Source: Blastocatellia bacterium (GTDB lineage Bacteria; Acidobacteriota; Blastocatellia; UBA7656). Taken from it: a DNA stretch of 64,000 nucleotides. Position 1 is the stretch's first letter. The number at the start of each line of letters is the position of its first letter. The notes under the pieces are model-generated. The model was not told where the DNA came from and made no database searches. It worked only from the letters and a program-made list of their open reading frames with translations. Position numbers and translations under genes: made by a program. The DNA lies in contig DASQDI010000089.1 in the NCBI GenBank assembly GCA_035634255.1, positions 45,142 to 109,141 on the forward strand, written 5' to 3'. This document shows positions 4,701 through 22,365 of the stretch, piece after piece.

Positions 4701-4915
4701 GAGTTCGAAAGGTTGAAGAGCCAGAACTCGCCGTTGATCTCTTTTATCCCGGCGTGCGTGCGGGAGACCGCGCGGTGGTTGAGGACGAGGTCGTTGCCTA
4801 TCAGGCGGCCGATGGTCAGCCCCTCGCTTTCGAGGGCCACGTCGTCGACGCCCCGGTCCTTGTCTTTCCTCTTAATGATGAAGTTACTCTTTGCGGACAT
4901 AGCATCCCACTTCAT
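1739..4915 (-). CDS. multidomain redox protein: N-terminal FHA domain, TM helix, heptaheme cytochrome c domain, TM helix, 2x[4Fe-4S] ferredoxin domain, FAD/NAD(P)-dependent pyridine-nucleotide-disulfide-type oxidoreductase domain
   Basis: ORF 1739..5002; start assigned to ATG at 4915, which forms an ATGA overlap with the TGA stop of the upstream gene (4912-4914). FHA: GRLIGNDLVLNHRAVSRTHAGIKEINGEFWLFNLSNSNGTVLNGELV...GDIIQIG. TM1 YFAWGVIAVAAASLGALYLF. Seven CxxCH motifs (CSSCH, CGDCH, CTACH, CANCH, CKDCH, CAKCH, CNGCH). TM2 WRVWLALVGAPILFGLAAVFAG. Fe-S: CIGCHACVEVCP and CQVECP. Rossmann folds DYDVAVIGAGPAGLSAA and KCVVVGAGNSAVEAAVDL, plus an inserted C4 zinc ribbon (CVKCGAARQGAQVRCAACG). Confidence 0.85.
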   Translation of the reverse strand: MKWDAMSAKSNFIIKRKDKDRGVDDVALESEGLTIGRLIGNDLVLNHRAVSRTHAGIKEINGEFWLFNLSNSNGTVLNGELVEKSPLSEGDIIQIGPYVLAASRLGNALAITVERELELHALGLTPSKVLPVDDGSGATVLVRMPVASAKKRAGVPPTGRLPGRGLLNTALPSIDQQALDVFWEKRRREAGKINARTPLHPKENQRVGKAQWNWRPTLDLKRLWRKSYFAWGVIAVAAASLGALYLFDEAYSPGPLSAAHSASAQSGAAPPARNVALQPNGGSCSSCHGITSLMQNKCGDCHTTQAFRPAIYDAHEREGMGCTACHTEHEGTDSEMGLMSYGLCANCHNGSYEIKTGERAGSPLAIPHGGVTGYPKANGTWQWKLSAEQVKRKGLPGYVATLSPHDQFHGVHQLGRMKDRMTCKDCHSGTRGSAIYRDSPRDECAKCHGVASVSEGRVERVQANCNGCHQQHGQSEDLAKFLASAEDDERKLKAYFTTLGAGGPGEDSDRLATARVFAGVGEAGRIRQDRDAPAGGFISGMGALSWRVWLALVGAPILFGLAAVFAGTVRRRSLFKTVRPRAEHDGQAESSGMLGSRSLDLDKLKEVGPAYPHPVIDPVLCIGCHACVEVCPHDVLAIVNGIATSVAIDQCMEDTSCQVECPTNPKACIVINTTKVIQPRKVPARDQRFMTNVDGIYLIGDVSGVPLIKNAVNEGAQVVDHIIESFRGEASGEADYDVAVIGAGPAGLSAAVIARQRGLKYILVEQDRVVSTIEAYPAGKYIYFKPDTMDARGGLPLAGAGDKKEQILESWMRTMKSNGIAIHDQESCKDIKREQGFFRVVTEKGKLKDTSAYKARAVILAIGNRGTPMKLRVPGEELTIKLQPGLVKHCVKCGAARQGAQVRCAACGSQFPETLTASYQDSKVKYRLTDPDDYSGRKCVVVGAGNSAVEAAVDLCGLRRDGDGMTFTRDNEVTLVVRSDFKADLKLGNKMNVYDCMDKGRIKVYFRAEIKEIKEGEVVLKDVKTGEEKARIPNDYVFALIGGEKPTKFLESLGVKIS

Positions 4916-7347
4916 TCGGCCGCGTAATAGATCACCTGAATTATGTGAACGATCATGAGGGCGAGCATAATGGAAGTGGTCGCCACATGCGGCGGCAGCC
5001 ACACCTTCAGCAGGCGGTGTACGTAGATCAGCGCGTCGACCCTCCTCAGGGCCGCCGCCGATTCGACCGCGCGCAGAAGCTTCCGCCTGTCCCTCTCGCT
5101 CTCCAACCTCCCGGCTTCACCCTCGAACTCTCCCTTCGCCAGGTCGAGCGCCCGGTCGGGGTCCTCGCGCTTCGTGTACTGTTTGAGCAGGTACCCGAAA
5201 GAGATGAACCGCGGAATCACTCGCCTCTTTATCAGGTGCGAAACCTGCTCCGACGTATCCGAGGCAAGCTCCATCAACTCTTTCTGCAACTCCTGCCGGC
5301 GCACGAGCAGGTCGTCGAGCAGGAGCGGAGCGCCTTCGATCTTCGTGAGCAGTCGCGGGCCGAGGTAATAACAGGCGATCCCGAACAGGCCGGTGAGTAT
5401 CACGAGATCGAAGCTGATCATGAGGGCCGTCGTGAGCATCCCCCCGGAGTCCGTGCCGCCGTGGAGGAAGATCATCACCGCGCCCAGTACCCCCAGGTAA
5501 GAATGCGCGAGCATCCAGTACCTCAGAGCGCCCGCGCGCTTCTTGTATATCTGCCGCCTCACCGGGTAGAGCATCGCGAAGAAGATCGCCGCGAGCCCCG
5601 CGAGGCCCGTGACCCACCGCATGTTGAGAAAGCCCCAGAGCCGCTCTCCGAACCCGTAACGGTCGAGGCCGAAGACCGCCGCCGCCGACAGCAGCAGGAG
5701 GCCGAGGATTCCCACGGCATGCGTGAGGCGGCGGGGCGGGTCCGACCTGTGAATGTTGCGGCCATAGGCGTGCCTCGGGTCGAGAACGAGCAGCCCCTCG
5801 ATCTCCCCGATCTCCGTGAAGTACTCGCGCGGGTTGATGCGCGCCAGAGCGCCGGTTGGGCAGTTCTCTTCGCAGCTGTAGGCGCGCCGCCTCGCGGTCG
5901 GAGGGTTGAGCGAGGCGCGGTCGCTGCACAGGTTGCACTTGACCGCGAGCAGGTCGTCGGTCGCTTCGACCGGCGGCGGGAGCGGGTCGAGCCTGATCCG
6001 CAGCAGGTCTTTCAAGCGCGCGGCTAAGCCCATCTTCGACGAAGCCGGGGGCCTGCGCGAGGTCATCGAGATCGCGTCGTAAGGGCACTGGGCCGCGCAG
6101 TCCCCGCAGCCGATGCAGGTCGATGTGTTTATGTCGATCTGCCCCCCGGTGAAACGCCCGATGGCCCCGGTCGGGCACCCGGTCAGGCACTCCGGGTCCT
6201 TGCAATGCATGCAGACTTCGGGCGAAAGGAGGCTCTGACGCGCGCCCGCCTTCGGGGCCTTCAGCCGCGTTATGTGGATGCCTCGTCGCGTGAGCCGCGA
6301 CTGCCCGTGAATCTTATGGCAGGCCAGGGAGCAGTTGCCGCACCTGACGCAGAGGTCCATGTCCATCACGAGCAGGTTGGTCGCGTCCACCAGCCCCGTG
6401 TCTATCAGGTCTTCGCGCGCCGACATCACCGCGGAACGCACTCCCGGAGCCTGTTTCGTGTCTTCGAGCGGGAACGGCGGCGGGGTAAATCGCGCGAGCT
6501 CCGAGGAGAGAGACTCCCTGACCGCGGGCGTTTGCCGGAGCGGGTCAATGGGTATTTCAATGACTTCGGCGCGGGCCATGATCGTGACTGTGTAAGGCCA
6601 CAGGGAGTTTTTCATCACCTCTTCCAGCCCGAAGCAGAAGCCGCTCCCAAGGAAGTCCCGGACCTCGGAGCCCCCGGCCTGTCTGCTCCTGCGAATCCAC
6701 CCTTCCTTGATTATGTACACCCGATCCGCCGGCAGGCCCTCGTGAAAGAGGACGTGGTTCTTGGAGTAGATTTTGAATGACGAGAGATTCTGAAGCTCGG
6801 GCGTCAGTTCCGGCCTGAGGCCCGTAACGAGCTTCAGGTCCTCGATGGCCGCATTCCTGCCGTGGAGCCGGTAAGTCTTGTCGAGCGTCTCCCCGAATTG
6901 CGGGAGCTTGCGAAGGAGCCTGAGGGCCGGGCGCTGCACCTCCAATATATCGGCAGGCGCGAGCCGCGAAGATTTGACCGTGGCGTTGCGAGGCACGCCC
7001 GCCAGCACCGACATCTCGCCGAACTGCGCCCCCGGCCTCAGCTCCGCGACCTTAAGCTCCCCGTCGCCGGGCGTGTTGACCAGCACGTCGGCCGAGCCCC
7101 TGACCAGCAGGTAGAAGGTATTGCCGCCCCAGTCGCCTTCCCTGACCACGACCTCGCCCGGCTCGTAAGTCAGCAGGCGCACGTAAGGGCCGACCTTCTT
7201 CCCCCCGTAGTTGCGCCCGTAAACGATCACTTCGAGGTCCAGCTCGTAATTGAAATGGCCGTCGTTCATCGAGAGCAGCTCGGACACGGAAGGGAGGTCC
7301 CTGATCGCGTCGAGCACCTCGCGGCGACTCTTATGTTCAAGCGGCAT
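4912..7347 (-). CDS. tandem cyclic-nucleotide-binding domain protein fused to a 4x[4Fe-4S] ferredoxin-like module and a C-terminal polytopic membrane domain with conserved His
   Basis: 811 aa. Two CAP-family cNMP-binding domains (FGEMSVL...RNATV; FGLEEV). Cys clusters CVRCGNCSLAC, CMHCKDPECLTGCP, CIGCGDCAAQCP, CNLCS...CEENCP. About five hydrophobic helices at the C-terminus with His (MLAHSYLG, IFLHGG, MIVHIIQ). Confidence 0.85.
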   Translation of the reverse strand: MPLEHKSRREVLDAIRDLPSVSELLSMNDGHFNYELDLEVIVYGRNYGGKKVGPYVRLLTYEPGEVVVREGDWGGNTFYLLVRGSADVLVNTPGDGELKVAELRPGAQFGEMSVLAGVPRNATVKSSRLAPADILEVQRPALRLLRKLPQFGETLDKTYRLHGRNAAIEDLKLVTGLRPELTPELQNLSSFKIYSKNHVLFHEGLPADRVYIIKEGWIRRSRQAGGSEVRDFLGSGFCFGLEEVMKNSLWPYTVTIMARAEVIEIPIDPLRQTPAVRESLSSELARFTPPPFPLEDTKQAPGVRSAVMSAREDLIDTGLVDATNLLVMDMDLCVRCGNCSLACHKIHGQSRLTRRGIHITRLKAPKAGARQSLLSPEVCMHCKDPECLTGCPTGAIGRFTGGQIDINTSTCIGCGDCAAQCPYDAISMTSRRPPASSKMGLAARLKDLLRIRLDPLPPPVEATDDLLAVKCNLCSDRASLNPPTARRRAYSCEENCPTGALARINPREYFTEIGEIEGLLVLDPRHAYGRNIHRSDPPRRLTHAVGILGLLLLSAAAVFGLDRYGFGERLWGFLNMRWVTGLAGLAAIFFAMLYPVRRQIYKKRAGALRYWMLAHSYLGVLGAVMIFLHGGTDSGGMLTTALMISFDLVILTGLFGIACYYLGPRLLTKIEGAPLLLDDLLVRRQELQKELMELASDTSEQVSHLIKRRVIPRFISFGYLLKQYTKREDPDRALDLAKGEFEGEAGRLESERDRRKLLRAVESAAALRRVDALIYVHRLLKVWLPPHVATTSIMLALMIVHIIQVIYYAAE

Positions 7348-7438: not shown

Positions 7439-8317
7439 TCAGAAAGGGAGCGCCCCCGTGTGGCACTTCGTGCACACGGCTTCGCGCGCGCGGACGTGAC
7501 AACTCCAGCAGGCCGAGCTGTGCCTCTGCCCGCTCGCGGTGCTGATCTCCATAATGTCCGGGCGCGTCGCGTTCCCGCCCGCGTCGGAAGTCTTGTGGCA
7601 CCTCGCGCAGTCGACCTTTCCGGTGTGCGAAGCGTGCCTGAAATTATAGAGCCTGAACGCGGACCCGAGGCCGCGACTGCCTTTCGACGCGGTCGCGGCC
7701 TCCGAGTGGCAGACTCTGCACTCGCTCAACTGCTGGCCCGCCTGATGCGCGTGGCAACTGTAACACTGCTCGTGCGCGGGGAAGCTGGCGTTCACGCCCG
7801 CCGGGTCGAACCGATGGCAGCGGTCGCACTTGCCCGCGTCCGCGTCCGAAGGCATCTTCGACGGGTCGAGGTGGGTCTTATGCGAAAACCCTTTCAGCCC
7901 GAACTCGCCGAGTTTTTCCGGGAAGCTTATCAACTTCCCGTCCACCGGGACCACGTGACAGATCACGCAAAGCTCGCTCGTGGACGAGCTCATGTCCTGC
8001 ACGTGACACTCGATGCATGCCCTGTGGCCCGGAAATTTCGGGACCACATCGTTGTCGGCCCGCTCGTGGCAGGCGTTGCAGTCCTGCGCCCTGGTCCTGT
8101 GCTCGGGCCGGTTGTGATCGAAGGGCGACCTCTTCTCAATCGTCTTCGAGACGACGACGTTGAAGGGCGATTCTACAGACGCCCGCTCGGGCTGCGGCGA
8201 TTCCGAAGGCGCGGGCTGCGTGCGCTTCGCCTCCCTGCACGCGAGCAGGCCGAGCATCAGCGACACGGCCGCGACCGCGACCACGCGCTTGATTTTTATG
8301 GCCCTGTGATTCCGCAT
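7439..8317 (-). CDS. multiheme cytochrome c (about 9 CxxCH), probable lipoprotein
   Basis: 292 aa; signal/lipobox-like LLACREA; CNACH, CIECH, CVICH, CDRCH, CYSCH, CRVCH, CARCH, CWSCH, CTKCH. Confidence 0.85.
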   Translation of the reverse strand: MRNHRAIKIKRVVAVAAVSLMLGLLACREAKRTQPAPSESPQPERASVESPFNVVVSKTIEKRSPFDHNRPEHRTRAQDCNACHERADNDVVPKFPGHRACIECHVQDMSSSTSELCVICHVVPVDGKLISFPEKLGEFGLKGFSHKTHLDPSKMPSDADAGKCDRCHRFDPAGVNASFPAHEQCYSCHAHQAGQQLSECRVCHSEAATASKGSRGLGSAFRLYNFRHASHTGKVDCARCHKTSDAGGNATRPDIMEISTASGQRHSSACWSCHVRAREAVCTKCHTGALPF

Positions 8318-8332: not shown

Positions 8333-9250
8333 TCACCGCTTCGCGAGGCTGTCCAGAATGCTCGCAGGCAGAACGTCGGGGAGCCCGACTTTGCCGTTGT
8401 GACACTGCCGGCAATGCTCCGGCTCCGGCAGCCTTATCTCGTCGAGCCGCGCGGCCCGTGTGACGGCTCGGTGACACTCCGAGCACAACGCGTCCGCGGC
8501 CTTAACGGCTCGGAACTCGCTCTTCTTTTTCGGCCTTATGTCGTAATCGTGGTCCGCGTGCCTGAACTCGCGCACGACCCCGAACAGGCGCGGGGCCTGC
8601 GGATAGCCGAGCCTGTGACAGCCGGCGCAGTCGAACATAGCGGGCCTGACGAGGGGCTTTTCATCATGGCACCTGAAGCAGGCCGCGTGGCCCGTCTCGA
8701 TGGTCATGTCTTCCGCCCGCGCCGCCGCTGGCTCGACCCTCCTGTGGCACTCGGCGCACTTGTTGCTCTCGTTCGCATTCAGGCCGACGGGCGACGGTTT
8801 GAGGTGCGACGGGTGCGAGAAGTCCATGCCGAAGTCGGTCCTGAGGTTCCTCTTCGGGAACTCGAAGAGCGCCGACTGGCTCCTCGACACCGCGCGCCCC
8901 TCGTGGCAGATGCCGCAGAAAGCCACCGGCTTGATGAAGAACTCGGCCGCGAAGTTGTGACACGGGGTGCAGGCGAGGTGCCCCGGAAATCCCTTCACGT
9001 CTATCTGAGCCGGGGAGACGGAGTGGCACTTCGCGCAGTCGAGCGCCCTGTGGCCCTTCGTCTCGTGAGGGAAGCTCGCCGCCGCTCGCGAGGCGGGCGA
9101 CTGCGCCCGAGCCTCGGACGACGCGGGGTTGAAATAGAGCAGAATCCCGCACAGACAGGCCAGAGCCAGCGTCCCTGTCTTTACCGATGTCTTTATCGAT
9201 CTGACGCCCACCTCTCCCTCCGGGTGCCGCGGTCCACCTCCCGAAATCAT
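8333..9250 (-). CDS. multiheme cytochrome c (about 8 CxxCH), secreted
   Basis: 305 aa; hydrophobic N-terminus; CAKCH, CTPCH, CGICH, CAECH, CFRCH, CAGCH, CSECH, CRQCH; its ATG (9248-9250) overlaps the TGA of the upstream gene (9247-9249). Confidence 0.85.
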   Translation of the reverse strand: MISGGGPRHPEGEVGVRSIKTSVKTGTLALACLCGILLYFNPASSEARAQSPASRAAASFPHETKGHRALDCAKCHSVSPAQIDVKGFPGHLACTPCHNFAAEFFIKPVAFCGICHEGRAVSRSQSALFEFPKRNLRTDFGMDFSHPSHLKPSPVGLNANESNKCAECHRRVEPAAARAEDMTIETGHAACFRCHDEKPLVRPAMFDCAGCHRLGYPQAPRLFGVVREFRHADHDYDIRPKKKSEFRAVKAADALCSECHRAVTRAARLDEIRLPEPEHCRQCHNGKVGLPDVLPASILDSLAKR

Positions 9251-9705
9251 CGGGCCGCCGAGACCGTCTGGTGACAGCCGTTGCAGGTCGTCGGCCCTTT
9301 ACTCGAAGCCCGATGGCACGCGATGCAGCTATCGTGAAAAGCCCTCTCCGCGAATACTTCGTCAAAGTCCCTGTTCTTAGGGTTGCCCTTACTGCCCTCG
9401 GCCCTGTGGCACGCGCCGCACTTCGACAACTGCGGCACCCCGAAAGGGTCGCGCGCGTGATGGCATCCGACGCATGCGGCCCCGGCCTTCGATTGATAAG
9501 GGGCCCGAGGGTCGGGGTTCATACGGGCCTCGTGCGCTTTGTGGTTGAACAGCACGACGCCCCGCCTGCCATTCATGTCGAGCCTGAACACCTTCGCGCC
9601 GCCCTGCCCGAACGATTCCGTCCGCGCGACCGGGACGGACGGGGAGATGGAACTGAGGGCGAGCCCGAGGGCGTAGACGACGATGACGGCCAGCTTCAAA
9701 CCCAT
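9247..9705 (-). CDS. small periplasmic tetraheme cytochrome c (c3/c7-like)
   Basis: Start placed at MGLKLAVIVVYALG (ATG 9703-9705, GGAG RBS upstream) inside ORF 9247..9825; CVGCHH, CGACH, CIACH, CNGCH; paralogous to the N-terminal domain of the 13842..16154 product (FNHKAHE...CVGCHH vs FDHKKHE...CVGCHH). Confidence 0.8.
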   Translation of the reverse strand: MGLKLAVIVVYALGLALSSISPSVPVARTESFGQGGAKVFRLDMNGRRGVVLFNHKAHEARMNPDPRAPYQSKAGAACVGCHHARDPFGVPQLSKCGACHRAEGSKGNPKNRDFDEVFAERAFHDSCIACHRASSKGPTTCNGCHQTVSAAR

Positions 9706-9724: not shown

Positions 9725-12700
9725 TCACCTCTTCGCCCTCTTCCTCTGCCTGCGCCATTGCATGACGCTGATCGCCGGGGGCACAAGGATGAAGAAGAGG
9801 TTGAAGAGGTCGGGTGATCGGTCATGCAATCTTTCGGGCGGCGCGGCCTGCTCGATCTCTTCCAGACGCTCCTCCCCCCCGCCCGGCTCCTTCGCCCGCG
9901 ACGAGTCGCCCGAGCCCGCGGGCGGGCCGTAGAAATCGCGAACGTCTCTGTTCTGCTTTCGATTCTGGTCCCGAATCTCCGGCACCGCGTAGGGTTCGGG
10001 CCTGCCCCCGACGGCCTTCAGGTACATTCGCCGCATCTCCGACAGGTTGAAGGGCCGGGACCCCCTGCGCCCGAACACCGCGAGCTGGTTGCCGCTCTCA
10101 TCCGCCGCCCGGTCGCGGTCCAGCCCCTCGGAGACGGCGAGCGCCGGGGCGTGCGTGTGGTGCGTCGCGATGAGTCGGGGCGACGGCTTCGGGCTGAAGC
10201 CGTAATGTCCGGGCGTGTCTTCGGGCGACGTGAGCTGCAGGACCCGCAGGCCGTTGCGCCCGTCGGCGACGTAGGCGAACAGGCTCACGTTCGTCATCCC
10301 GACTTTAACGTCGCGCGCGTCGTTGATCTTCCCGCCCGCGTCGTAAAGTTGCTCGACGCGAGGTCGCTCCGGCTGCTCTATGTTGATGACCGCGAGCCCC
10401 TGCCGGCCCGCCGCGACGTAGGCGTAGGTGCGGACCAGATAAATGCTGTTGGCTTCGGGGAGCGGGACGGTGGCCGAGGCGATGGGCCGCGCGTCGGCGG
10501 GCGCGGTCACGTCGATGACCTTCACCCCTTCCGAATCGCACACGAATGCGTAGCGGAACTGGACCTGCACCGCGCGCGGCCGGTTTAGGAAAGGCGCGCC
10601 GACCTCTTTCACCACCCGCGGCTTCAGCGGGTCGTCGAGGTCGATTATCACGAGCCCCCTGTCGCAGGTGACGTAGGCGTGCGTGCCCGCGATGGTGATG
10701 CTGCTCGCGCCGTTGAGCACCCCGCTCGGGTTCCACGTCAGCGCGCGCCTGAGAAAATTATTTCTCGGGTCGCCGTCGAGCAGGGTCGCCGCGCCCACGA
10801 GCACGAGCCCCTCGTGCCTGTCCGTGACGTAAATGTAGCCGTAGAGAGGATGGATCGGCTGCCCGTCGTCGCGGTTGATGGCCTCTTCGTTTTCCGGCAG
10901 GTGCCGCCTCGTCGGGTCCACGGCCATCGTAGAAGGCGAGGCCACCGAGGTCGCGTACTTCGTGTCCACGTAAAACCTCTGGCCGAGCGGAGAGAACGGG
11001 GCCGTGGTTATCCGTTCGGAAAAGCCCTTCTGGTCTATGTTGGCAACGTCGTAGACCTTGAGCCCTCCGCGGCCCGTCGCCGCGTAAAGGTACTCGCCCC
11101 GGAGTTGCAGGCTCAGCACTTCGGTCTTCCTGTCCCGCAGGGGCGTCAAGGCGTTCAGGATGTCGTTGCCCGGATGCTCGTAGAACTCCTTCAGCTCTTC
11201 GTGATTCTCTTTGTGCTTATTATATTGGTCGGGGAAGGCGAGGCCGTGCAGGTAGCTCCCTATGACCGCCTGCGGCTCGTCCCTTTCGGTGACCACCACG
11301 CCCGCGAACCCCGCGTCCCCCAGGGCGACGTAAGCGAACCGGCCTATGAAGTTGTAGAAGTTGGTCCCCTGCATCAGGGTCATCGCCATGAAAGCGTTGT
11401 TGTCGCCCGCGGCCGACACATGGCAATCGGTGCAGCCGCGCGTCTCGCGGGTGCGGACCGTGTGCGGGAAGTGGGGGCTGAACGCCGTGCCGCTGTAACC
11501 TTCCGCCGAGACCGTCTGCTGCTGCGAGTATATCCACTCGCGGTTCTGATTCTGCGAGCTGACGAGCACGGCGCAGGCGGAGCGGATGGGCGCGACCCTC
11601 CGACCCGTCACCGAGCCGTCGCGCCCGAGCAGGAACACGTCGTCGCGGAGGGTCTGGAAGTTATAAGAGGTGTAGTTGCGCAGGTCCTTCTCGCCCTCGT
11701 TGTGCAGCATCGGCATCTTCTCGTTGGCTTCCATCTTGAGGTGGCAGCCGAAGCAGCTGGGGGTCCACGAGGTGTGGCAACTGTAGCAGGTCATGTTCGA
11801 GTTCGCGTGCGCGAGCGAGCCCTCGCCTTCGGGCGCGCGGCCCCACGTCTTCCCGTCCTTGAGCAGGGTCTTCGCGAGCGCCGCGACCTCGTTGTAGTCG
11901 GGGTTCCCCTCCGAGACCGTGTCGGCCACCTGCTTAACTTCCCAGACCTTCGGGTTCCCCTTCTCGTCCGTCGCGACCGCCGCGCGCTGGAACAGCCTGC
12001 CCTCCCTCTTGAAGAACCGGTCCTTGCCCGAAGGGGTGTCGCGGTACTCGATCATCCGGTTGCCGCCCGCCGCGGCGGAGGTCCGCGCTTCGACCGAGGT
12101 GGGGTCGGCGCGCTTCGTTATCGTGCCGTGACAATCGACGCAGTCGATCTCGATGGCGTTGCGCACTTCGCCGTAGAGCTTCCCGTTCCCGTGATTGTCC
12201 TGCTTGAAGTGACAGTCGACGCAGTGCATGCCCTTTTCGAGGTGGATGTCTTTCAGGTGGACGGGCACGCCTTCGCGCGAGGCCGGGTCGTCGGTCGTCT
12301 CCCTGACGGCCCTCCGCAATTTCTCGTTCGTCACTTCGCCGACGACCTTGCCTCCGTGGTCGAGCAGGTTGCCGTGGCGGTCTTTCTTATAAGCCGACCT
12401 GAATACCCAGCCGTGGCCCGTGAAGTCCGCGAACTGGGTGTGTTTGAGCTTCGGGTTCACCTGCTCCGTGAGGCCCTTCAAAAACTCCACGTCCCCCCAC
12501 CTGCCGCGCAGGGCCGACTCTTCCGGGTTGCGCTTCAGAATCTGCTGCGCCTGCTCGGGGCTGAGGGGCTTGCGCTCGCCGGCCTTCGGGTACATCTTGT
12601 CGCCGTCGGTCTCAAGGTCCCACCACGTGTAGCCGAAGTATGAATTGACGACGAGGGTGCCGGGGTGCATGTGGCAGACCACGCACTGGCTCGAAGGGAT

Positions 12701-13828
12701 CGCGCGCGTGAACTGGTGCCTTATGGGGTGGCCCGGCTCGTCCTTCGGGATCGTCGGGTCTTTGCTGTGGCTGAGCCCCGTGTGGCCGTATTGCGAGTAA
12801 GGCCCCGAGTGGAACTGGTCGCGGTCGTTCGCGTAGACGACGTGGCAGGCCGTGCAGCCGCTCGAACGGTAATCGCCCGGCTGGTCGTTCGTGCCCATGA
12901 ACGAGAGCATCGGGTCGAGCAGCCTCGTCTTTTGAAGCCCGAGGAAAACGGGGTCGGTCCTGAGCAGGGTCCCGAGCCCGCGCGGGCTGAGCAAATTCTG
13001 AGTCGGGCGGCCCGGCGGCTCTTCCGTTATGGGGAGCCCGACCTCCGCCGCCTTGCGCCCCCCGCGCTCGAACGTGCGGAGTATGTTTCCCATCTGGGTG
13101 ATCTCCCACCGCGGGAGCGGGTCGAGGAACGGGAGCACGCCCTTTTGCTTAATATCCTGGGCGGACGGCTGCGGGACGGTCTGAAGGCGCTGGGGGCGGC
13201 CCTCGGAGTCGTAGCTCTCGCCGAACCTGTAATTCTTGAGCGGGTACGACCCGTTGTTATAAAGCGCCGCGCCCCAAAGCATCGAGCCCGTAGTCATCAT
13301 GCTCTTGCCGACGTTGTGCACGTCCTCGGTGTGGCACTCGCTCGTGCCGCAGCTCAGGCGCGCCACGCGCAGGTCGCCGGGGTTGATGAAGCGGATGAAC
13401 TCGGGGCTCTCTTTAGTCAAAAGGGTGTTGGACCGCTCGGGATTCGCGGAGCTCTTCCAGGCTTCGGGGAAGCGCGGCGGGACGTGGGCCTTCTGCTTCG
13501 CCTCGGCGTACGCCGAGGCGCCGGGGCCCGCGCCCTGGGCGAGTCGCGCGCCCGCGTCCCCCCCGTGGCAGTCGGTGCAGCCGATGTCGATGGCCCCGCC
13601 GTGCATGTCCTCGATGCCCGCGTGACAGTCTAGGCAGCCCGCGCTCCTCCGCATGGCCTCTTCGGCCGTCGTGTTCCAGAGCCGGGGCCCCTGCGTTTGG
13701 GGATTTTGTGAAGCGGTTCTCGAATCGGCGAGGACGGCGAACGAGTAGCCGCAGGCCAGCGCCAGTATGAGCGACAGCTTCAGGGTGCTTTTCCGCCAGA
13801 CCAGTTTCATTGGGCCGCCCATCTCCAT
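9725..13828 (-). CDS. giant secreted multiheme cytochrome c (about 9 CxxCH plus one CX4CH) with C-terminal LVIVD-repeat beta-propeller and hydrophobic/polybasic tail
   Basis: 1367-aa ORF (alternative start MKLVWRK at 13810); signal peptide [17 protein letters not shown]. Heme motifs CLDCH, CTDCH, CGTSECH, CTACH, CVVCH, CVDCH, CVDCH, CYSCH, CFGCH, CTDCH. Repeats [13 protein letters not shown] / [17 protein letters not shown] / [14 protein letters not shown] / [15 protein letters not shown] / [15 protein letters not shown] / [15 protein letters not shown]-terminus ...[27 protein letters not shown]. Confidence 0.85.
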
Positions 13829-13841
13829 CTCCCGCCGCGAA

Positions 13842-16154
13842 TCAATAGGTGAATTTCAGGCGGACGAATACCGAGTACAACGATTTCGGTTTAGCGCCGC
13901 ACCCCGAGCCCCCGCAGCTTGAGCTGTAAATCTCTTTGAAGCCCGCGTCGGGCACGAGCGACGAAAAGCCCGCCGACACGATGGCGTTCTCGTTTAAAAA
14001 GGGCCTGTAGATGAACCCGAGCCCGTAATCGAGCCCGATGCTCCTGTTTATCCCCGGCTGAAACAACAGCTCTTCGAGCGGCTCCGGGTGGTGGAAGTGA
14101 AGGTAATTCACGTTGAGTACGCCCTTCAGCTTCGGGGTGAGCTCCGCGTCGAGGCCCAGGTTGTAGAGGAACAATCCGGGGTTGACGAAATTGGACTGCC
14201 CTTCGGTCTTGCTACTGCGGAGGCTCGGTATGAGGCTCTCGGGCTGCACGAGCCCGACGCCCGTCTGCGTCAGCCTTATGGCCTGACTGTTCCAGAAGCT
14301 GAACTTCCCGCCCGCGAACTCGGGGAAATCGAAGATCGCGTCGAAGCCCCTCGCCTTGTCGTCGAATGGGTCTTTGTCGCCCGAGGCGAAGAAGAACGAG
14401 CCCTTGAACCTGAGCCAGTCTCTATCGAGCGACAGTTCGAGCGCGGCCATCTGCGCGTTGATGTCCGTGCGGCGGCCCGCTATCGGGTTGCGCGTGTCGT
14501 GGCCTATGACCTGATAGAGTGCGTGATTGATGTTAAGGCGGCCTATGTGCCCGTCCCCGGCCCAACCGAAATAGCTGGACTTGATCCCGTGCGGCGCAAC
14601 GTCCCCGACGGGCGCGGGCCGCACTAGAAAATCGTTCTCGTCGAAATGGCGGCTCGGGCGGTCATTATTGTAGTGATAGCTGAACTGAGTTGTGTAGCCC
14701 TTCCACCCCGTGTCCTGCCGGTAGAGGTTGGCGATGAAGACGGTCTGGTCCCGGAACTCGCCCAGGTTGACGCGCGTGTTCAACTCGCTGTTGGTGTCCT
14801 TCTCAAGCATGTAGAAGTACGCCGCGTTGAAGTTGTAGCGGTTGTTAGCGTGCTGCCCGAACAGCCTGACGCCGAGGTTGAAGTCATTAAATATGAAGCC
14901 CCGGAAATCCGAGACGAGCGGCTGAATGCCCGCGCGGATGAAGGTCGAGTCGAAGAACGGGCTGCCGCCTCCGACGCTCCCGCTCCCGCGCAGGAAAGGG
15001 AGCAGGCGGGTCGTGTCTCCGAGGCGCACTTCCCCGAAGGCTTCCTGAAAGCCGACGTAGCCGTCCGTGCGGTTCGCGCCCCTGCGCGGGTCGATGTTGA
15101 CTATGCCGTTCTCCTGAGTGTTGAGCAGGTTGATGTTGAAGTTGGGCGTGAACCTGAACCTGTAGTCCGCCGGCTTGAAGGCCGCGTCGCCATGGAACAG
15201 CTCGACGGAAAGCAGGAAGTTCTGCCTGAAGAACAACTGCCCCCCGCGCCCGAAAAACTCGGAGCTGTCGGGCCTCTGGCTGCTGATGTCGCTCGGCACG
15301 GGCACGCGCCGCGCGTTGAAGAACGTGTCGCTTTCCGCCGTGACGACGAGGAAGTTGTGCTGGCCGAACAGAGGGTAATCTCCCTTGAGCACGTTCTGGC
15401 GGTACGGGTTGTACCAGCGGCCTTCCTCGAATCTCGGGTCCGAGGGGAACCCGATGCGCCAGCGGTCGGTGACCGTCACCGCGTCCGAAGACTCCTGCTC
15501 GGGCGCGGGAATCCTCGACGGCCCCGCGTACCCGCGAGGCGGGTCAACCGGAGTCTTTATGATCGCCCCGGCCGACGGCTCCGTGCCGCTTTCCAGCGGC
15601 GCCTCGGCGGGTTCATCGAGCGGAGTCAAGGGCTCGTCCGGCACGGTTACGGGCGTGAGATTCGCCTCCCGGTCGTGGCATTCGGAACAGCGCGTGAAGC
15701 CGACGTTAGTAAATCGCTCGTTAGAGGCCTTCATGTCCGAAGCCTTGTGGCACCCTATGCAGAGGCGGTGGAAGGCGTCCCTCGAATTCAGGTCGAAGCC
15801 TTCCCTGTCGTCCGGGTTGCGCGGGTCGCCCAGGGCCCCGTGGCAGGAAGTGCACTTCTGAAACTGCCCCGCTTCGGTTATGTCTTTGACCGTGTGATGG
15901 CACCCGACGCACGCGAGACTTGCGGGGGCTTTGTGAGGGGAGGCCGGGTCGGGATTCAGGACCGCTTCATGTTTTTTATGGTCGAATAAGACGAGGCCCC
16001 TGCGGCCCTGAACGTCGAGCCTTATCGGGAAGGTCTTCTGCGCCGCCCGCTCCGCCTGCGCGGGCTCGGGGCGGGCGAACGCGCGCGATTCAAGCGTCAC
16101 GGGCACGAGCAGGGCCATCGCGTACAGGGCGACTATTGTGAGCTTGAGTGTCAT
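13842..16154 (-). CDS. porin-cytochrome fusion: N-terminal tetraheme c3-like domain joined to a large outer-membrane beta-barrel
   Basis: Start set at [19 protein letters not shown] (ATG 16152-16154, AGGAAGGA RBS) within ORF 13842..16223; CVGCHH, CTSCH, CIGCH, CSECH; then ~580 aa rich in Gly/aromatics with alternating hydrophobic pattern, ending ...[13 protein letters not shown] (beta-barrel-like terminal strand with aromatic end). Confidence 0.8.
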
Positions 16155-16406
16155 CCGGTCCTTCCTGCCCGCGGGACAGCCAAATAGTGACTGCCATACT
16201 GAATGAAGGGATCCAAAAATCAAAACGATCAGGAATAGTTGAGAAGATCGCTTCTTGAAATAGTTGCTTTACGTTCCCTAAGAGCCCGGCTTCTGCGAGT
16301 CCGCGCCAATATAGCACAACGATTCATCAAAGTTAAGCAGCGGGTTCGGCGCGCTCCGGCGCAGCGATACTTTTCGCTCTACAAAATGATCGCGGTTGCA
16401 TGTAAT

Positions 16407-18383
16407 ATGGCGGCGTCGAAAAACTCACCCAGGCGGGACCCGGAGGGCGTCGTGACTAAAACATGCGCGCGAGTGAAACGGGGCGGCGGGAGGGCCGCGC
16501 TTCTGCTGATGGCGGTCGCGGCTCTGGCGTTGAGCGGGAGCGCATTCGCCGCGCTCGTCCGGGCCGAGGGCGTCCCCGTCATCGACCCGCGAAAATCTTC
16601 TTACGACCCGAACACCGGCGCTCTGACGATCAAGGGCGAGAACTTTCAGGCCGGGGCGGCCATCTCCATCTCGAACGACTCGGGCGAGGTCGGCTTCTCA
16701 CGGGTGAAGGTGAAAGGGCCGGGCAAGATCGTCATCAACGGGGTCGCGGAGGCAGACATCCTCGGCGGCCTGACCGTGAAAGTCACCAACCCCGACGGCG
16801 CGTCGGCGGCCGTAGTACTGGAGTTGGAGGTCTCCGACGACAAGCGGCTCGGCGAAAGCGACGTGCGCAGGATCATCGCGCAGGCGGTGGCGCGGGCGGA
16901 GGCGAGCGACCTTAAAGCGACCGTCGCCGTGGTGGACAGGGAAGGAAACGTGCTTGGGGTCTTCAGGATGGCGGGCGCGCGGGCCGACACGGTGATCGGG
17001 ACTGACCGCCCCTGCCGGGACTGCGGCGCTGAAGGGTTGCGCGTGCCGGCGGAACTGGCCGCGATCTCGAAGGCCGGGACCGGCGCGTTCCTGAGCACTC
17101 AGGGCCACGCCTTCACGACGCGCACGGCCAGCTTCATCGTGCAGGAGCACTTCCCCCCCGGCGTGGACTTCACCCCCGGCGGCCCGCTCTTCGGGGTGCA
17201 GTTTTCGCAGCTGCCATGCAGTGACATAAATGCCAAGTTCCCGCTCGGCCTTTCGGCCGACCCCGGAGGCGTGCCTCTCTACAAGAACGGGCTGTTAGTC
17301 GGCGGAGTGGGGGTCGAAGGCGACGGCAGGTACTCGCTCGACCCGGACCCGACCGATTTCGACATGCCCGTGGAGGAGATTGCGGCGGTGGCGGCCACGC
17401 GCGGATTCGAATCGCCGCCCGACATCCGCGGGAATCAGATAATCGTGAACGGCATACGCCTCCCCTTCGTCAACACTCCCGCGCCGCCCGCGCTCCCTCC
17501 GCCGCCGTTCGACCAGCTTCGCGGGGAGCTGCTGGCGGAGGTGAGAAGCTCGCTCCCTTCCACCTTCCGCGCCATAACTCTGCAAGGTTTGAGGGGGAGG
17601 GTCGATGACCGCTTCTTCCCGTTCAGGGGCACGAGCTCGCTCTCGTCGTCGGAGGTGCAAAGGATAATCGTTCAGGGCGCGCGGCAGGCTTTTCTGACGA
17701 GGGCCGCGATACGGAGGCCGCTCGGGAGCGCGGCCGAAGTGAACATCGCCGTCGTAAGCTCGGAAGGGACGGTGCTCGGAATCTTCAGCACTTCGGACGC
17801 CCCGATGTTCGGCTTCGACGTGAGCGTCCAGAAGGCCCGCACGGCCGCGTTCTTCAGCAACGCGGAAGCCGCGTCGCTGCTGCGCTCGGCCGAAGGCGGG
17901 AAGTTCGCTAAGTACGTCTCGGCGGCGGCGCGCGACGGGGTCGCACTCGATGGCCGGATCGCTTTCAGCAACCGGGGGCAGGGATTTTTGAGTCGCCCCT
18001 TCTTCCCGGACGGGATCAACGACAGCGAGCACGGCCCATTCTCCGTGCCAATTGAGGAGTTCAGCCCGTTCAACGTCGGCCTGCAACTCGACCTGTTGCT
18101 CACGGCGATCTCGAAAGCTCTGATGGGAGAGCGCGCGCCCTGCACCGCGATACCGAATCTCGGGAACGGGATACAGATATTCGCGGGCAGCGTCCCCCTC
18201 TATAAAAGCGGGCGTCTGGTCGGGGCCATCGGGGTGAGCGGAGACGGCATCGATCAGGACGACATCATCGCCGCGATGGGTAGCGCGGGATTCGAAGCGC
18301 CCCCGGAGATGCGGTCCGACCGCGTCTTCGTGCGCGATGTCCGCCTGCCCTTCGTGAAATTTCCCCGCAACCCGAACCGGTGA
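16407..18383 (+). CDS. secreted protein with two tandem GlcG/DUF336 (HbpS-like heme-binding/heme-degrading) domains
   Basis: ORF 16239..18383; likely real start at ATG 16386/16407 or GTG 16476 (signal peptide VKRGGGRAALLLMAVAALALSGSAFA). Domain 1 ESDVRRIIAQAVARAEASDLKATVAVVDREGNVLGVFRMAGA...LVGGVGVEGDG; domain 2 SEVQRIIVQGARQAF...VNIAVVSSEGTVLGIFSTSDAP...KARTAAFF...LVGAIGVSGDGIDQDD. Confidence 0.75.
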   Translation: MAASKNSPRRDPEGVVTKTCARVKRGGGRAALLLMAVAALALSGSAFAALVRAEGVPVIDPRKSSYDPNTGALTIKGENFQAGAAISISNDSGEVGFSRVKVKGPGKIVINGVAEADILGGLTVKVTNPDGASAAVVLELEVSDDKRLGESDVRRIIAQAVARAEASDLKATVAVVDREGNVLGVFRMAGARADTVIGTDRPCRDCGAEGLRVPAELAAISKAGTGAFLSTQGHAFTTRTASFIVQEHFPPGVDFTPGGPLFGVQFSQLPCSDINAKFPLGLSADPGGVPLYKNGLLVGGVGVEGDGRYSLDPDPTDFDMPVEEIAAVAATRGFESPPDIRGNQIIVNGIRLPFVNTPAPPALPPPPFDQLRGELLAEVRSSLPSTFRAITLQGLRGRVDDRFFPFRGTSSLSSSEVQRIIVQGARQAFLTRAAIRRPLGSAAEVNIAVVSSEGTVLGIFSTSDAPMFGFDVSVQKARTAAFFSNAEAASLLRSAEGGKFAKYVSAAARDGVALDGRIAFSNRGQGFLSRPFFPDGINDSEHGPFSVPIEEFSPFNVGLQLDLLLTAISKALMGERAPCTAIPNLGNGIQIFAGSVPLYKSGRLVGAIGVSGDGIDQDDIIAAMGSAGFEAPPEMRSDRVFVRDVRLPFVKFPRNPNR

Positions 18384-20838: not shown

Positions 20839-21100
20839 CTTTACTCCTCACCTTTCCTTACCGATTCGCATTCATAAATAACTATATAGACTTCGGCGGA
20901 GAACTTCTGTTCAATACAGGACATGGGTAGATAAAACCGGCATAAAAACATGTTCGGCCCGCGTAGGGAGCCCGAGCCCGCGATTTATCCGCGCCATCGT
21001 CTAATATGGCACAGCGTCGGTACCCCCGGGGGTGTATAATAATTCGGTCCGGGAAGCAACCGGACAGGACGCCACCTTAATCGCCCTGACCGGGAGCGTT

Positions 21101-21781
21101 ATGATCGAGAACAACCCTGAAATGAATTTATTCAAAGAGCGGATACGCGAGTCGCTCCAACGCGAGACCCAAAACTCCAGCGCCATCAGGGTCTCCAAGC
21201 ACAACAAGGTGTACGTGGTCGGGGATGAAGTCGACATGGTCTACTTCATCGAGAGCGGCGAGGTCAAACTGATTATGGTCTCGTCCGAAGGCAAAGAGTG
21301 CCTGCTTGCGATTCATGCCTCGGGAGATATTTTCGGCGAGCTGTGCCTGTCCGGGATGGCCGGCCGCATGGAGACGGCTGTCGCGATGGAGGACACGGTT
21401 CTGAAACAGGTCCATTGCACCAGATTCCTTGAGAGTTTGGCCAGAGACTCTCTGCTCGAAGGTTTCATCAAGTATCTGGCGGTGCGCGTGGCGGACCAAC
21501 AGGTGGTCATAGCGAATCTGGTGACGGTTGACAGCGAGCAGCGTCTGGGGAAGACCCTGCTGCAGCTGGCCAGAAAGCTCGGCAAGAAGGACCCTCGCAG
21601 CATACGCATCGAGCTCAAAATCTCGCACGAGGAGTTGTCCTCGATGGTCGGCACCACGAGGCCGCGCATCAGCATGTTCATGCAGAGATTTCGGAACCTC
21701 GGGCTCATCGAGACGAGCGCGGAGAACCACCTGATCATCAAGGAAGCGAAGCTCACCGCATACCTGTCATCCATCGCCTAG
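21101..21781 (+). CDS. Crp/Fnr-family transcriptional regulator (cNMP-binding + C-terminal HTH)
   Basis: ORF 21032..21781, start probably MIENNPE (21101) or MNLFKER (21122); cNMP-binding beta-roll (GDIFGELCL); HTH ISHEELSSMVGTTRPRISMFMQRFRNLGLI. Confidence 0.8.
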   Translation: MIENNPEMNLFKERIRESLQRETQNSSAIRVSKHNKVYVVGDEVDMVYFIESGEVKLIMVSSEGKECLLAIHASGDIFGELCLSGMAGRMETAVAMEDTVLKQVHCTRFLESLARDSLLEGFIKYLAVRVADQQVVIANLVTVDSEQRLGKTLLQLARKLGKKDPRSIRIELKISHEELSSMVGTTRPRISMFMQRFRNLGLIETSAENHLIIKEAKLTAYLSSIA

Positions 21782-21945: not shown

Positions 21946-22365
21946 ATGTCTGTCATGTTACGAGCGACAAAAAGAATTCTTTACGTAGATGATAATGAAG
22001 ATTCCTGCGAAATGATCACCGTACTGCTTGAGATAGGTGGTTACGAGGTGGCCACCGCGCATACCGTGGACGACGGTTTGAGCCGGGCCAAGCTTGAGCA
22101 GTTTGACCTGTACGTCATGGACAACAGATTCCCGGACGGCACGGGAGTTGACCTCTGCCGCCTGATCCGCGCATCCGACGAAGACACTCCGATCATCTTT
22201 TATTCGGGCGCCGCGTACCCCTATGACATCAAAGAGGGATTGGATGCGGGCGCACAATGCTACCTGACGAAACCGAGCGGCATTTACGACATTGAACGGA
22301 CCATAACAGGGTTGCTCGCCGGGACCGGGGAGGTTATGGCGAATCCCCGGCAAAGCCAGCCTTAA
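21946..22365 (+). CDS. single-domain response regulator receiver (CheY-like)
   Basis: 139 aa; ILYVDDNEDS...DLYVMDNRFPDGTG...YLTKP receiver signatures. Confidence 0.85.
   Translation: MSVMLRATKRILYVDDNEDSCEMITVLLEIGGYEVATAHTVDDGLSRAKLEQFDLYVMDNRFPDGTGVDLCRLIRASDEDTPIIFYSGAAYPYDIKEGLDAGAQCYLTKPSGIYDIERTITGLLAGTGEVMANPRQSQP

Follow-up and report, generated by a model that had tools for sequence, protein, structure and literature searches.

Fusion of a cytochrome to an outer-membrane porin is not new in principle, because Cyc2 of Fe(II)-oxidizing bacteria is already such a protein (Keffer et al. 2021, PMC8406198). Cyc2 has a single CxxCH motif in a short N-terminal domain, followed by a 16-strand OprO/OprP-like barrel. 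In the MtrCAB, PioAB and Geobacter Pcc (OmaB-OmbB-OmcB) systems, a barrel gene lies beside multihaem cytochrome genes in one operon, and barrels of the MtrB/PioB/OmbB type, with approximately 20-26 strands, surround a separate periplasmic multihaem protein. At the inner membrane, cytochrome c_y of Rhodobacter, a small monohaem class I cytochrome joined to an alpha-helical membrane anchor by a flexible linker of ~70 residues, carries electrons on its tether between redox partners that stay in place. A literature search returned Cyc2 and the Mtr/Pcc/Uet systems; the barrel family, the cytochrome c3 fusion and the decahaem-LVIVD protein discussed below were not described there.

The window analysed here, a 64,000-nucleotide stretch of DNA from a Blastocatellia bacterium, contains a stop-free reading frame (16154..13842, minus strand) for a single protein of 770 aa, in which a signal peptide, a tetrahaem cytochrome c3 domain, a Pro-rich linker, a 37-aa motif and a C-terminal barrel follow one another (Table 1). 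The length of 793 residues given in an earlier note on this DNA is that of the mechanical TTG-to-stop ORF and is replaced by 770 aa; a ribosome-binding site, AGGAAGGA, lies 5 nt 5' of the ATG of the fusion gene. The signal-peptide motif MxLKLxIV..Y is common to the fusion gene, the free-standing c3 gene of the same operon and orthologues of the latter. A promoter-like site is found ~150 nt 5' of the start codon, inside a 252-nt divergent intergenic region, while the stop codon (13842-13844) is followed after 13-19 nt by the next gene downstream.

The same note had read the gene as one covalent fusion of a tetrahaem c3 domain and an outer-membrane beta-barrel, and this reading is upheld by the signal peptide, the four CxxCH motifs, the match to PF02085 and the predicted barrel. 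The chance that separate c3 and porin genes were joined artificially, through a frameshift in sequencing or assembly or a mistake in gene calling, is negligible. The frame is uninterrupted, an identical 770-aa protein was deposited independently in NCBI, and independent assemblies of many different origins contain full-length c3-barrel fusions at 55-93% identity. Homologues of the protein number more than 5000, and the best 120 of these are almost all full length. No support for an artefact was found, the 793-aa TTG ORF merely exceeding the real gene in length, and the frameshift was rejected.

Table 1. Features of the fusion gene and its neighbourhood in the 64,000-nucleotide window (aa numbers refer to the 770-aa protein).
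Feature	Coordinates	Strand	Basis or remark
FHA, membrane helix, 7-haem segment, second helix, 4Fe-4S ferredoxin, pyridine-nucleotide-disulfide oxidoreductase fusion	1739..5002	-	start codon uncertain
Inner-membrane protein: two cNMP-binding domains, 4Fe-4S dicluster domains, four C-terminal hydrophobic helices	4912..7347	-	
Nonahaem c-type cytochrome, LLAC lipobox, probable lipoprotein	7439..8317	-	
Octahaem c-type cytochrome, c7/c3-type modules	8333..9250	-	
Free-standing tetrahaem c3 gene	9247..9705	-	paralogue of fused c3 module
Obligate partner, ~1365 aa: 10 haem motifs, then 7-bladed LVIVD beta-propeller	9725..13828	-	synteny, fold, motif counts
18-strand outer-membrane beta-barrel, aa 267-770, C-terminal aromatic beta-signal ...VRLKFTY	13845..15356	-	
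Long conserved loop L7, aa 591-660, SGDxDPxD...GFD...FAGG...NFxNPG, between strands 13 and 14	14175..14384	-	column identity 0.81
Pre-barrel motif DRW...NPYxQNxLKGDxP, aa 230-266 (37 aa)	15357..15467	-	family-wide conservation
Flexible Pro/Ala/Glu-rich linker, aa 166-229, with small semi-conserved PxGYAGxS patch	15468..15659	-	composition, conservation, pLDDT
Class III tetrahaem cytochrome c3 domain, aa 46-165	15660..16019	-	PF02085, PDB match, eight invariant His
Start codon and signal peptide, aa 1-27	16074..16154	-	homologous to signal peptide of free c3 gene
Promoter-like site TTAACT-17-TATATT, TG-extended	16308..16336	-	consensus scan alone; not evidence of function
Secreted protein, Ig-like domain and tandem HbpS/GlcG-like domains, divergently transcribed	16407..18383	+	

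All four c3-type haem motifs recognized in the earlier note were located, namely CVGCH (aa 82), CTSCH (aa 101), CIGCH (aa 132) and CSECH (aa 156). Four CxxCH/CxxxxCH motifs within ~110 residues are the mark of a class III c3, and the domain matched the corresponding Pfam family (PF02085, class III cytochrome c) at 36.4 bits against a cut-off of 22.9 (E 6.8e-9), as well as Desulfovibrio c3 structures (PDB 2cy3, E 4e-8; 1w7o, E 4e-7). H59, H62, H86, H87, H105, H129, H136 and H160 are invariant across 72 homologues, the distal histidines being those at aa 59, 62, 87 and 129; eight conserved histidines are as expected for four haems with predicted bis-His ligation. In its four motifs, eight histidines, above-threshold PF02085 match and PDB matches, the domain thus resembles type I c3 and TmcA of Desulfovibrio. 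It differs from these in being attached covalently to an outer-membrane barrel, and in belonging to Acidobacteriota rather than sulfate reducers. The fused module and the free c3 of the operon share 42-45% identity with the signal peptide included (45% at E 6e-32), and the free gene is the probable source of the fused module.

The C-terminal part of the protein consists of alternating hydrophobic strands without an alpha-helical membrane segment. AlphaFold2 modelled ~18 long antiparallel strands at pLDDT 80-96, the count being taken from the DSSP string together with the fold matches. The best of these are all 18-strand barrels, the nearest being AlgE (PDB 4xnk, 3rbh), OprD/Occ and ChiP, and superposition on AlgE covered 354 residues at 2.7 A. 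With a Sec signal peptide, amphipathic antiparallel strands and an aromatic beta-signal also present, the domain agrees with a beta-barrel of predicted outer-membrane location, as had been proposed at the outset. Translation bears out the VRLKFTY ending reported earlier, and 78 of 96 representatives of the barrel family end in Y, F or W. The estimate of ~580 residues for the barrel needs to be reduced, since the barrel proper spans ~505 aa and is preceded by the ~65-aa linker and the conserved 37-aa motif.

Comparison with MtrB/PioB/OmbB by profile and fold, suggested as a check in the earlier note, did not yield kinship: the MtrB_PioB Pfam profile gave no match, MtrB was missing from the top 60 fold matches, and the barrel is of an AlgE/OprD-like, 18-strand kind. 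Membership of the MtrB family was therefore rejected. The locus shares with MtrCAB, PioAB and Pcc the placing of a barrel gene beside multihaem cytochrome genes in one operon and, presumably, the linking of periplasmic and outer-membrane redox chemistry; unlike in those systems, the partner is a decahaem protein of low haem density with a beta-propeller. Similarly, Cyc2 and the fusion protein both place a signal peptide, an N-terminal c-type cytochrome, expected to be periplasmic, and a C-terminal outer-membrane barrel on one polypeptide. Membership of the Cyc2 family was rejected, as there are four c3-class haem motifs instead of one and the barrel is not of the 16-strand OprO/OprP-like type. 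None of the top 150 HMMER matches of the barrel had the Cyc2 layout (one N-terminal haem, ~440 aa). Sequence identity to AlgE and OprD is also low (~12%), and the barrel, which gave no match to the Pfam families Alginate_exp or OprD, differs from them further in its N-terminal cytochrome and its unusually conserved loops. No polysaccharide-export genes are found nearby, the neighbours of the fusion gene being cytochromes. Residues 170-770 matched no Pfam or NCBIfam model at E <= 1, and the barrel had no PDB sequence match at E <= 10. The profile searches also gave a weak similarity to ExtM.

Residues facing the lumen are polar and conserved, and their charge is balanced (R+K 15, D+E 15), which does not point to ion selectivity. 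Over the wider barrel family there is no conserved His, Cys or Met, so the barrel itself carries no cofactor. From standard barrel geometry, an 18-strand lumen is too narrow to sheath the c3 domain or any multihaem chain. By analogy with loops of OprD and AlgE, loop L7 is probably an inward-folding constriction or plug. The pre-barrel motif, with a column identity of 0.82 and kept across phyla, is a candidate plug or partner-docking segment. AlphaFold2 gave no confident model for the c3 domain, linker and pre-barrel motif, so that some N-terminal segment may sit in a plug-like position. The linker itself, ~65 aa here and 42-78 aa among homologues, contains 18.5% Pro, has a pLDDT below 50 over most of its length and shows a column identity of 0.46 as against 0.78 in the barrel.

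The family that contains the barrel is large, unnamed and almost entirely haem-less, with 1564 clusters at 50% identity and relatives in at least 583 species genomes. Haem motifs were present in 3 of the top 150 HMMER matches. In other members the N-terminal position is filled by CarboxypepD_reg (E 1e-14 to 1e-17) or HEAT domains, and the c3 domain occupies the same swappable slot. The c3-bearing barrels form a single monophyletic clade of Blastocatellia type nested among haem-less barrels; the fusion arose once, and the cytochrome is a late addition confined to one clade of Acidobacteria. In barrels of the SusC/RagA type, an N-terminal CarboxypepD_reg extension is periplasmic. The swappable slot and the poorly conserved Pro-rich tether thus favour a periplasmic tethered relay over a membrane wire, and we infer that the fused c3 most likely hangs in the periplasm on a flexible tether. 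The arrangement of cytochrome domain, flexible linker and membrane anchor would then be analogous to that of cytochrome c_y, with a tetrahaem c3 for the monohaem class I domain and an outer-membrane beta-barrel for the inner-membrane helix.

Tight linkage of the fusion gene to a large downstream cytochrome gene, noted from this locus, extends through the family: in 63 of 64 informative loci the barrel gene is followed directly by a decahaem gene in the same orientation, and the sole unpaired locus carries a transposase. This strict pairing argues that barrel and decahaem protein work together, and gene adjacency alone suggests that they touch. Ten haem motifs are retained in 50 of 53 decahaem orthologues, with 54-78% identity across phyla. 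The propeller fold matches YncE/BtuG-type proteins, though non-specifically, and PDB sequence matches show weak generic haem-motif similarity to ONR, NrfA and ActA. In NCBI the partner is named 'hypothetical protein', and the gene pair as a whole, very widespread and strongly conserved, is annotated just as 'cytochrome c3 family' or 'hypothetical'. Status as an MtrC-like surface lipoprotein found no consistent support, the N-termini being mostly ordinary Sec signal peptides. The partner in the c3-fusion clade carries, in addition, a hydrophobic helix at the C-terminus together with an RRQRKRAKR tail; with its Sec signal peptide and hydrophobic anchor, it may in this clade be held at the inner membrane and not at the barrel. 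A third conserved member of the module is the gene for the HbpS/GlcG-like protein, close to the barrel gene in 56 of 70 loci, whose PDB sequence matches are weak ones to GlcG/EfgA-type (HbpS-like) structures. Further, the genes for the free c3, the 8-haem and 9-haem cytochromes, the cNMP-FeS membrane protein and the FHA-haem-FeS-flavoprotein occur in identical order in every c3-fusion locus. A Crp-family regulator is present as well.

The reading that we favour, at about even chances, is that the fusion protein is an outer-membrane-anchored periplasmic c3 relay serving the decahaem partner, with the barrel as a dock or gated channel and not a haem-filled wire. The 18-strand barrel would insert in the outer membrane, leaving the c3 domain in the periplasm on its tether. 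The conserved task of the barrel family would be to partner a decahaem/beta-propeller protein, usually alongside a secreted HbpS/GlcG-like protein. In the Blastocatellia-type clade, the operon's soluble c3 gene would have been duplicated together with its signal peptide, the copy being fused to the barrel where another periplasmic N-terminal domain usually sits. The tethered c3 could then pass electrons between periplasmic cytochromes and the decahaem protein at the barrel; its periplasmic contacts would be the free c3, the octahaem cytochrome, the nonahaem lipoprotein and the 7-haem domain of the inner-membrane flavo-FeS protein. The last of these, the FHA-haem-ferredoxin-flavoprotein fusion, is the candidate through which the chain would reach NAD(P)H in the cytoplasm. 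The barrel might serve as a docking platform, as a gated channel for the substrate of the decahaem partner, or as both.

A new form of trans-outer-membrane conduit had been proposed when the fusion was first noted. The covalent union of cytochrome and barrel stands, and together with the strict pairing with a decahaem protein and an operon rich in multihaem cytochromes it would suit a true wire, a chain of haems running through the lumen in the way that MtrA runs through MtrB and supplied either by the fused c3 or by the large cytochrome encoded downstream. The wire itself is not supported and is very improbable, given the narrow lumen, the tethering of the c3 domain and a barrel free of cofactors. 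An unlikely but less remote reading is that the barrel admits a dissolved redox substrate (Fe2+, chelated metal or a small oxyanion) to haems at its periplasmic mouth, where the fused c3, or the decahaem protein in other lineages, would oxidize or reduce it directly. It has a precedent in Cyc2, an N-terminal cytochrome and porin whose haem is proposed to be periplasmic, with Fe2+ entering the pore (PMC8406198). The nearest folds are substrate-specific channels, the lumen is polar and conserved, and the module occurs widely among aerobic lineages of soil and freshwater for which metal respiration is not known, all of which fit. However, the c3 domain is carried on a long, variable and flexible linker instead of being packed as a plug, most members of the barrel family have no haem domain, the 70-aa L7 and the pre-barrel motif may block the pore, and the balanced lumen charge does not indicate ion selectivity.

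It is also improbable that the barrel is an export or assembly pore, either translocating the decahaem protein or anchoring it at the surface, as two-partner secretion, Slam or usher systems do, or displaying its own c3 domain in autotransporter fashion. The gene lies directly 5' of the presumed cargo gene (63/64 loci), the variable periplasmic N-terminal domains are reminiscent of POTRA/TPR adaptors, polymers are exported by AlgE-type barrels, and the C-terminal helix and Arg-rich tail of some decahaem orthologues resemble a sorting signal. The propeller, in its non-specific likeness to YncE/BtuG-type surface proteins, points the same way, as BtuG caps an outer-membrane barrel. Against this, a folded protein of ~1300 aa with 10 haems and a 7-bladed propeller cannot traverse an 18-strand barrel; attachment of c-type haem and protein folding take place in the periplasm. 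A profile search of the fusion protein found no TPS, POTRA or autotransporter signatures, and the CarboxypepD_reg extensions of SusC-type barrels are periplasmic.

The trio of barrel, decahaem protein and HbpS-like protein is an undescribed module and a more interesting result than the c3 fusion itself, and the pair formed by the barrel and the decahaem/propeller protein probably represents a novel kind of redox module associated with the outer membrane. Versions of the three-part module in Acidobacteriota, Planctomycetota, Nitrospira, Verrucomicrobiota, Rokubacteria and Methylomirabilales are 50-60% identical, and a cNMP-regulated FeS membrane protein and an FHA-haem-ferredoxin-NAD(P)H flavoprotein fusion often accompany them. 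We suggest, tentatively and at somewhat less than even chances, that barrel, decahaem/beta-propeller protein and tandem HbpS/GlcG-like protein form an undescribed envelope-spanning redox machine that links NAD(P)H in the cytoplasm to a reaction located at the outer membrane or outside it; the c3-barrel fusion would then be the first outer-membrane-anchored, tethered periplasmic shuttle. Acidobacteriota rank among the most abundant soil bacteria and, to our knowledge, no function has been assigned to their many multihaem cytochromes. Should the module turn out to carry out redox reactions at the outer membrane or outside the cell in aerobic soil bacteria, it would broaden the taxonomic and mechanistic range of such processes. 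An anchored, tethered cytochrome that bridges the periplasm in place of free shuttles such as PpcA and STC would be a design principle undescribed for the outer membrane. The c3 fusion further provides an experimental handle, as a haem-staining outer-membrane band is expected at ~84 kDa.

The fusion gene is a single open frame of 770 codons and a stop, with a ribosome-binding site (AGGAAGGA) 5 nt upstream of its ATG. The length of 793 aa in an earlier note, made from the sequence alone, came from a mechanical TTG-to-stop open reading frame; the protein has 770 aa. Residues 53-160 belong to the class III cytochrome c family (Pfam, 36.4 bits against a cut-off of 22.9), Desulfovibrio c3 structures in the PDB match this domain (E 4e-8), and among 72 homologues exactly eight histidines are invariant. 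Four bis-histidine haems require eight histidines. The frame, these matches and the invariant histidines bear out the earlier proposal that a signal peptide, a four-haem c3 domain and a beta-barrel are carried on one chain.

An identical protein is on record under the name 'cytochrome c3 family protein [Blastocatellia bacterium]'. The fusion protein has more than 5000 homologues, and the best 120 of these, drawn from NCBI, JGI, ENA and Logan assemblies, share 55-93% identity, nearly all at full length and with the same two-part layout. An artefactual merger of two genes was rejected on the basis of the uninterrupted frame, the identical deposit and the full-length homologues across assemblies, and has practically no probability. 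The next gene begins 13-19 nt downstream of the stop, with no terminator found in between.

Features of the fusion protein and its neighbourhood (window coordinates unless marked aa)
Feature	Position	Strand	Description
Signal peptide	N-terminus of fusion protein
Haem-binding motifs	aa 82, 101, 132, 156		CVGCH, CTSCH, CIGCH, CSECH, respectively
Pro/Ala/Glu-rich stretch	between haem motifs and C-terminal part
C-terminal part	~540 residues		F/G/N/S/R-rich, terminus VRLKFTY
Motifs PxG[YH][AT]GxS and DRW...NPYxQNxLKGDxP	15520-15545 and 15357-15467, respectively	-
Fusion gene	16154..13842	-
HbpS-like protein	16407-18383	+	658 aa; Ig/IPT-like domain and two tandem HbpS/GlcG (DUF336)-like domains
Decahaem C-terminus	9725-9830	-	hydrophobic helix, then Arg/Lys-rich tail
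Order 1, free c3	9250-9705		4 haems
Order 2, octahaem cytochrome
Order 3, nonahaem cytochrome			LLAC lipobox
Order 4, 811-aa protein	4912-7347	-	two cNMP-binding domains, 4Fe-4S dicluster domains (DsrO/HmcB-like), four C-terminal hydrophobic helices
Order 5, 1087-aa protein	1739-5002	-	FHA, membrane helix, seven CxxCH, membrane helix, 4Fe-4S ferredoxin, pyridine-nucleotide-disulfide oxidoreductase
Crp/Fnr-family regulator	21032-21781	+	cNMP-binding and HTH_Crp_2
Response-regulator receiver	21946-22365	+	stand-alone

Sequence searches of Pfam, NCBIfam and PDB gave no match covering residues 170-770, and the C-terminal ~540 residues contain no alpha-helical membrane segment. AlphaFold2, run on the 72-sequence alignment, modelled residues 267-770 with high confidence (pLDDT 80-96) as ~18 long antiparallel strands, connected by short turns on one face and by long loops on the opposite face. 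Hydrophobic and polar residues alternate along the strands, and the fold matches include Campylobacter MOMP and the chitoporin ChiP. The C-terminal part is thus predicted to be an outer-membrane barrel rather than a soluble beta-rich domain, the outcome that the earlier note had named as counting against its reading. Residues facing the lumen are polar, conserved and charge-balanced, and the wider barrel family has no conserved His, Cys or Met. Two motifs preceding strand 1 (see table) are kept throughout the family, across phyla, and the one beginning DRW is among the best-conserved parts of the protein (column identity 0.82). Despite this conservation AlphaFold2 models both with low confidence; their folding may require a partner or the interior of the lumen.

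Even-stranded barrels have both termini in the periplasm, which is also where c-type haem is attached. In other members of the barrel family the position of c3 is occupied by CarboxypepD_reg, the domain type of the periplasmic N-terminal extension in SusC/RagA barrels. The linker that runs from the last haem histidine to the DRW motif spans 42-78 aa (median 68), contains 18.5% Pro, is poorly conserved (0.46 versus 0.78 for the barrel) and mostly lacks a confident model. The standard barrel formula gives a C-alpha radius of ~16.5 A for 18 strands at an assumed shear of S=20, and ~23.5 A for 26 strands; a c3 domain is ~30-35 A across. From the even strand number, the periplasmic haem attachment, the CarboxypepD_reg position, the flexible linker, the narrow barrel and the lack of conserved ligands, the fused c3 is most plausibly a periplasmic domain leashed to an outer-membrane anchor. 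By analogy, it would be the outer-membrane counterpart of the membrane-tethered cytochrome c_y.

We give about an even chance to a barrel that would dock or gate for the decahaem/propeller protein in the outer membrane, with the fused c3 relaying electrons in the periplasm from its tether. A true haem wire through the barrel, the trans-outer-membrane conduit of the earlier note, is disfavoured by the small inferred radius and by the absence of conserved ligand residues from the barrel, and is very improbable. A channel through which a dissolved substrate would reach haems placed at its periplasmic mouth has a precedent in Cyc2 (PMC8406198) and suits the channel-type fold, but it is unlikely here given the flexible tether and a barrel family whose members mostly lack haem. 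An export or assembly pore for the decahaem partner would have to pass a large, folded cargo, and this possibility, together with autotransporter-like display of c3, is considered rather improbable.

Among known systems, Cyc2 is nearest in gene architecture and porin-cytochrome complexes in operon logic, but the fusion protein lacks their defining haem number, strand number and fold relatives; AlgE resembles the barrel in fold only. The earlier suggestion of a new conduit variant holds in part: fused cytochrome-porins are already known from Cyc2, while no description of this fusion, of the barrel family or of the decahaem-LVIVD protein was found in full-text literature of partial journal coverage. 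The more notable result is the conserved three-gene module of barrel, decahaem/propeller and HbpS-like proteins, which deserves experimental attention.

Synteny was assessed by tblastn of each window operon protein against all fetched loci. The gene for the decahaem protein, the giant cytochrome of the earlier note, directly follows the barrel gene in the same orientation in 63 of the 64 loci with at least 1.5 kb of sequence downstream; a median of 186 nt separates the end of the barrel match from the first partner match. In the sole exception (locus L073), a PD-(D/E)XK-family transposase (2426-3346) takes its place, followed by unrelated genes (radical-SAM, halogenase-like), and synteny looks recently disrupted. 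The decahaem orthologues (1200-1460 aa) share an unusually high 54-78% identity across phyla, and 50 of 53 retain all ten haem motifs (nine CxxCH and one CxxxxCH). The C-terminal third is confidently predicted as a 7-bladed LVIVD/YVTN-type beta-propeller, and every source names the protein 'hypothetical protein'. The secreted HbpS-like protein (~600-660 aa) is encoded near the barrel in 56 of 70 loci, divergently in 44 and co-directionally in 12; haem or small-ligand binding, sensing and a chaperone function are possible roles. Given this co-occurrence across loci, these three genes, and not the barrel-c3 fusion, form the evolutionarily stable unit.

The C-terminal helix and tail of the decahaem protein also occur in loci L004-L011, L014, L016, L031, L043-45, L055, L069 and L080 and are absent from other clades. 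They resemble a PEP-CTERM-type sorting signal, but without the PEP motif, or may be an inner-membrane tail anchor. On a 1.07-Mb contig (L001, 12375-16543) gene calling splits the decahaem gene into three successive ORFs (348, 121 and 856 aa), probably owing to an assembly frameshift error or because the gene is a pseudogene.

Genes downstream of the decahaem gene keep the same order (1 to 5 in the table) in every c3-fusion locus. The 811-aa protein, named only 'cyclic nucleotide-binding domain-containing protein' at NCBI, may be a regulated trans-membrane electron-transfer subunit. In the 1087-aa protein, whose overall layout is unusual and whose flavoprotein part is thioredoxin-reductase/YpdA-like, topology implies a periplasmic multihaem loop between cytoplasmic regulatory and NAD(P)H-linked domains on one polypeptide. 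In Pyrinomonadaceae and Nitrospira loci, tblastn also places matches to both proteins close to the module, with identities of only 25-35% for some of them. Judged by their domain content, these proteins may form a chain that starts at cytoplasmic NAD(P)H, crosses the inner membrane and ends, via periplasmic cytochromes, with the decahaem protein at the barrel. The Crp/Fnr-family regulator and the receiver lie ~5 kb from the operon and are possible regulators because operon proteins contain cNMP-binding domains.

An exhaustive HMMER search of 1.84 billion cluster representatives with residues 225-770 returned 1564 clusters at E <= 1e-3, of which 423 reached E <= 1e-30. Among the best 150, the four haem motifs are present in only 3; the N-terminal extensions of the remainder measure 30-630 aa and contain no CxxCH, and mostly no Pfam domain. 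The family is a large one, without a name, in which haem motifs are nearly always absent. When one genome per GTDB species was scanned, relatives turned up in at least 583 genomes, spanning several Acidobacteriota classes, Planctomycetota, Nitrospira and Verrucomicrobiia. Whole genes rebuilt in 80 loci carry CarboxypepD_reg in Pyrinomonadaceae, Terriglobia and Bryobacteraceae (Pfam E 1e-14 to 1e-17), HEAT repeats in planctomycetes, and, in other lineages, small repeated domains or no more than a short linker; the N-terminus is therefore a domain-swapping position. Records L004, L006, L008, L011, L056 and L062, which are 'binchicken' and other third-party (TPA) MAGs, are titled Clostridia, Heliomicrobium, Heliobacteriaceae, Cytophagia or Chlorobiaceae; their barrel genes share 52-86% identity with the Blastocatellia gene and keep its synteny, and the taxonomy in these titles looks unreliable.

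When 84 barrel domains were placed on a neighbour-joining tree, the seven barrels that bear c3 (window, L001, L004-L007 and L051) grouped in a single clade. Haem-less barrels surround this clade, and members of its sister clade have a short N-terminus only. Between the fused c3 and the free-standing c3 encoded two genes downstream, identity is 42-45% (E 6e-32), and the two have the signal peptide motif MxLKLxIV..Y in common. The free c3 gene was seen only in fusion-clade loci, save a weak match (25% identity) in L044. The simplest history would be duplication of the operon's own c3 gene, with one copy joining the 5' end of the barrel gene and displacing its earlier signal peptide and periplasmic domain.
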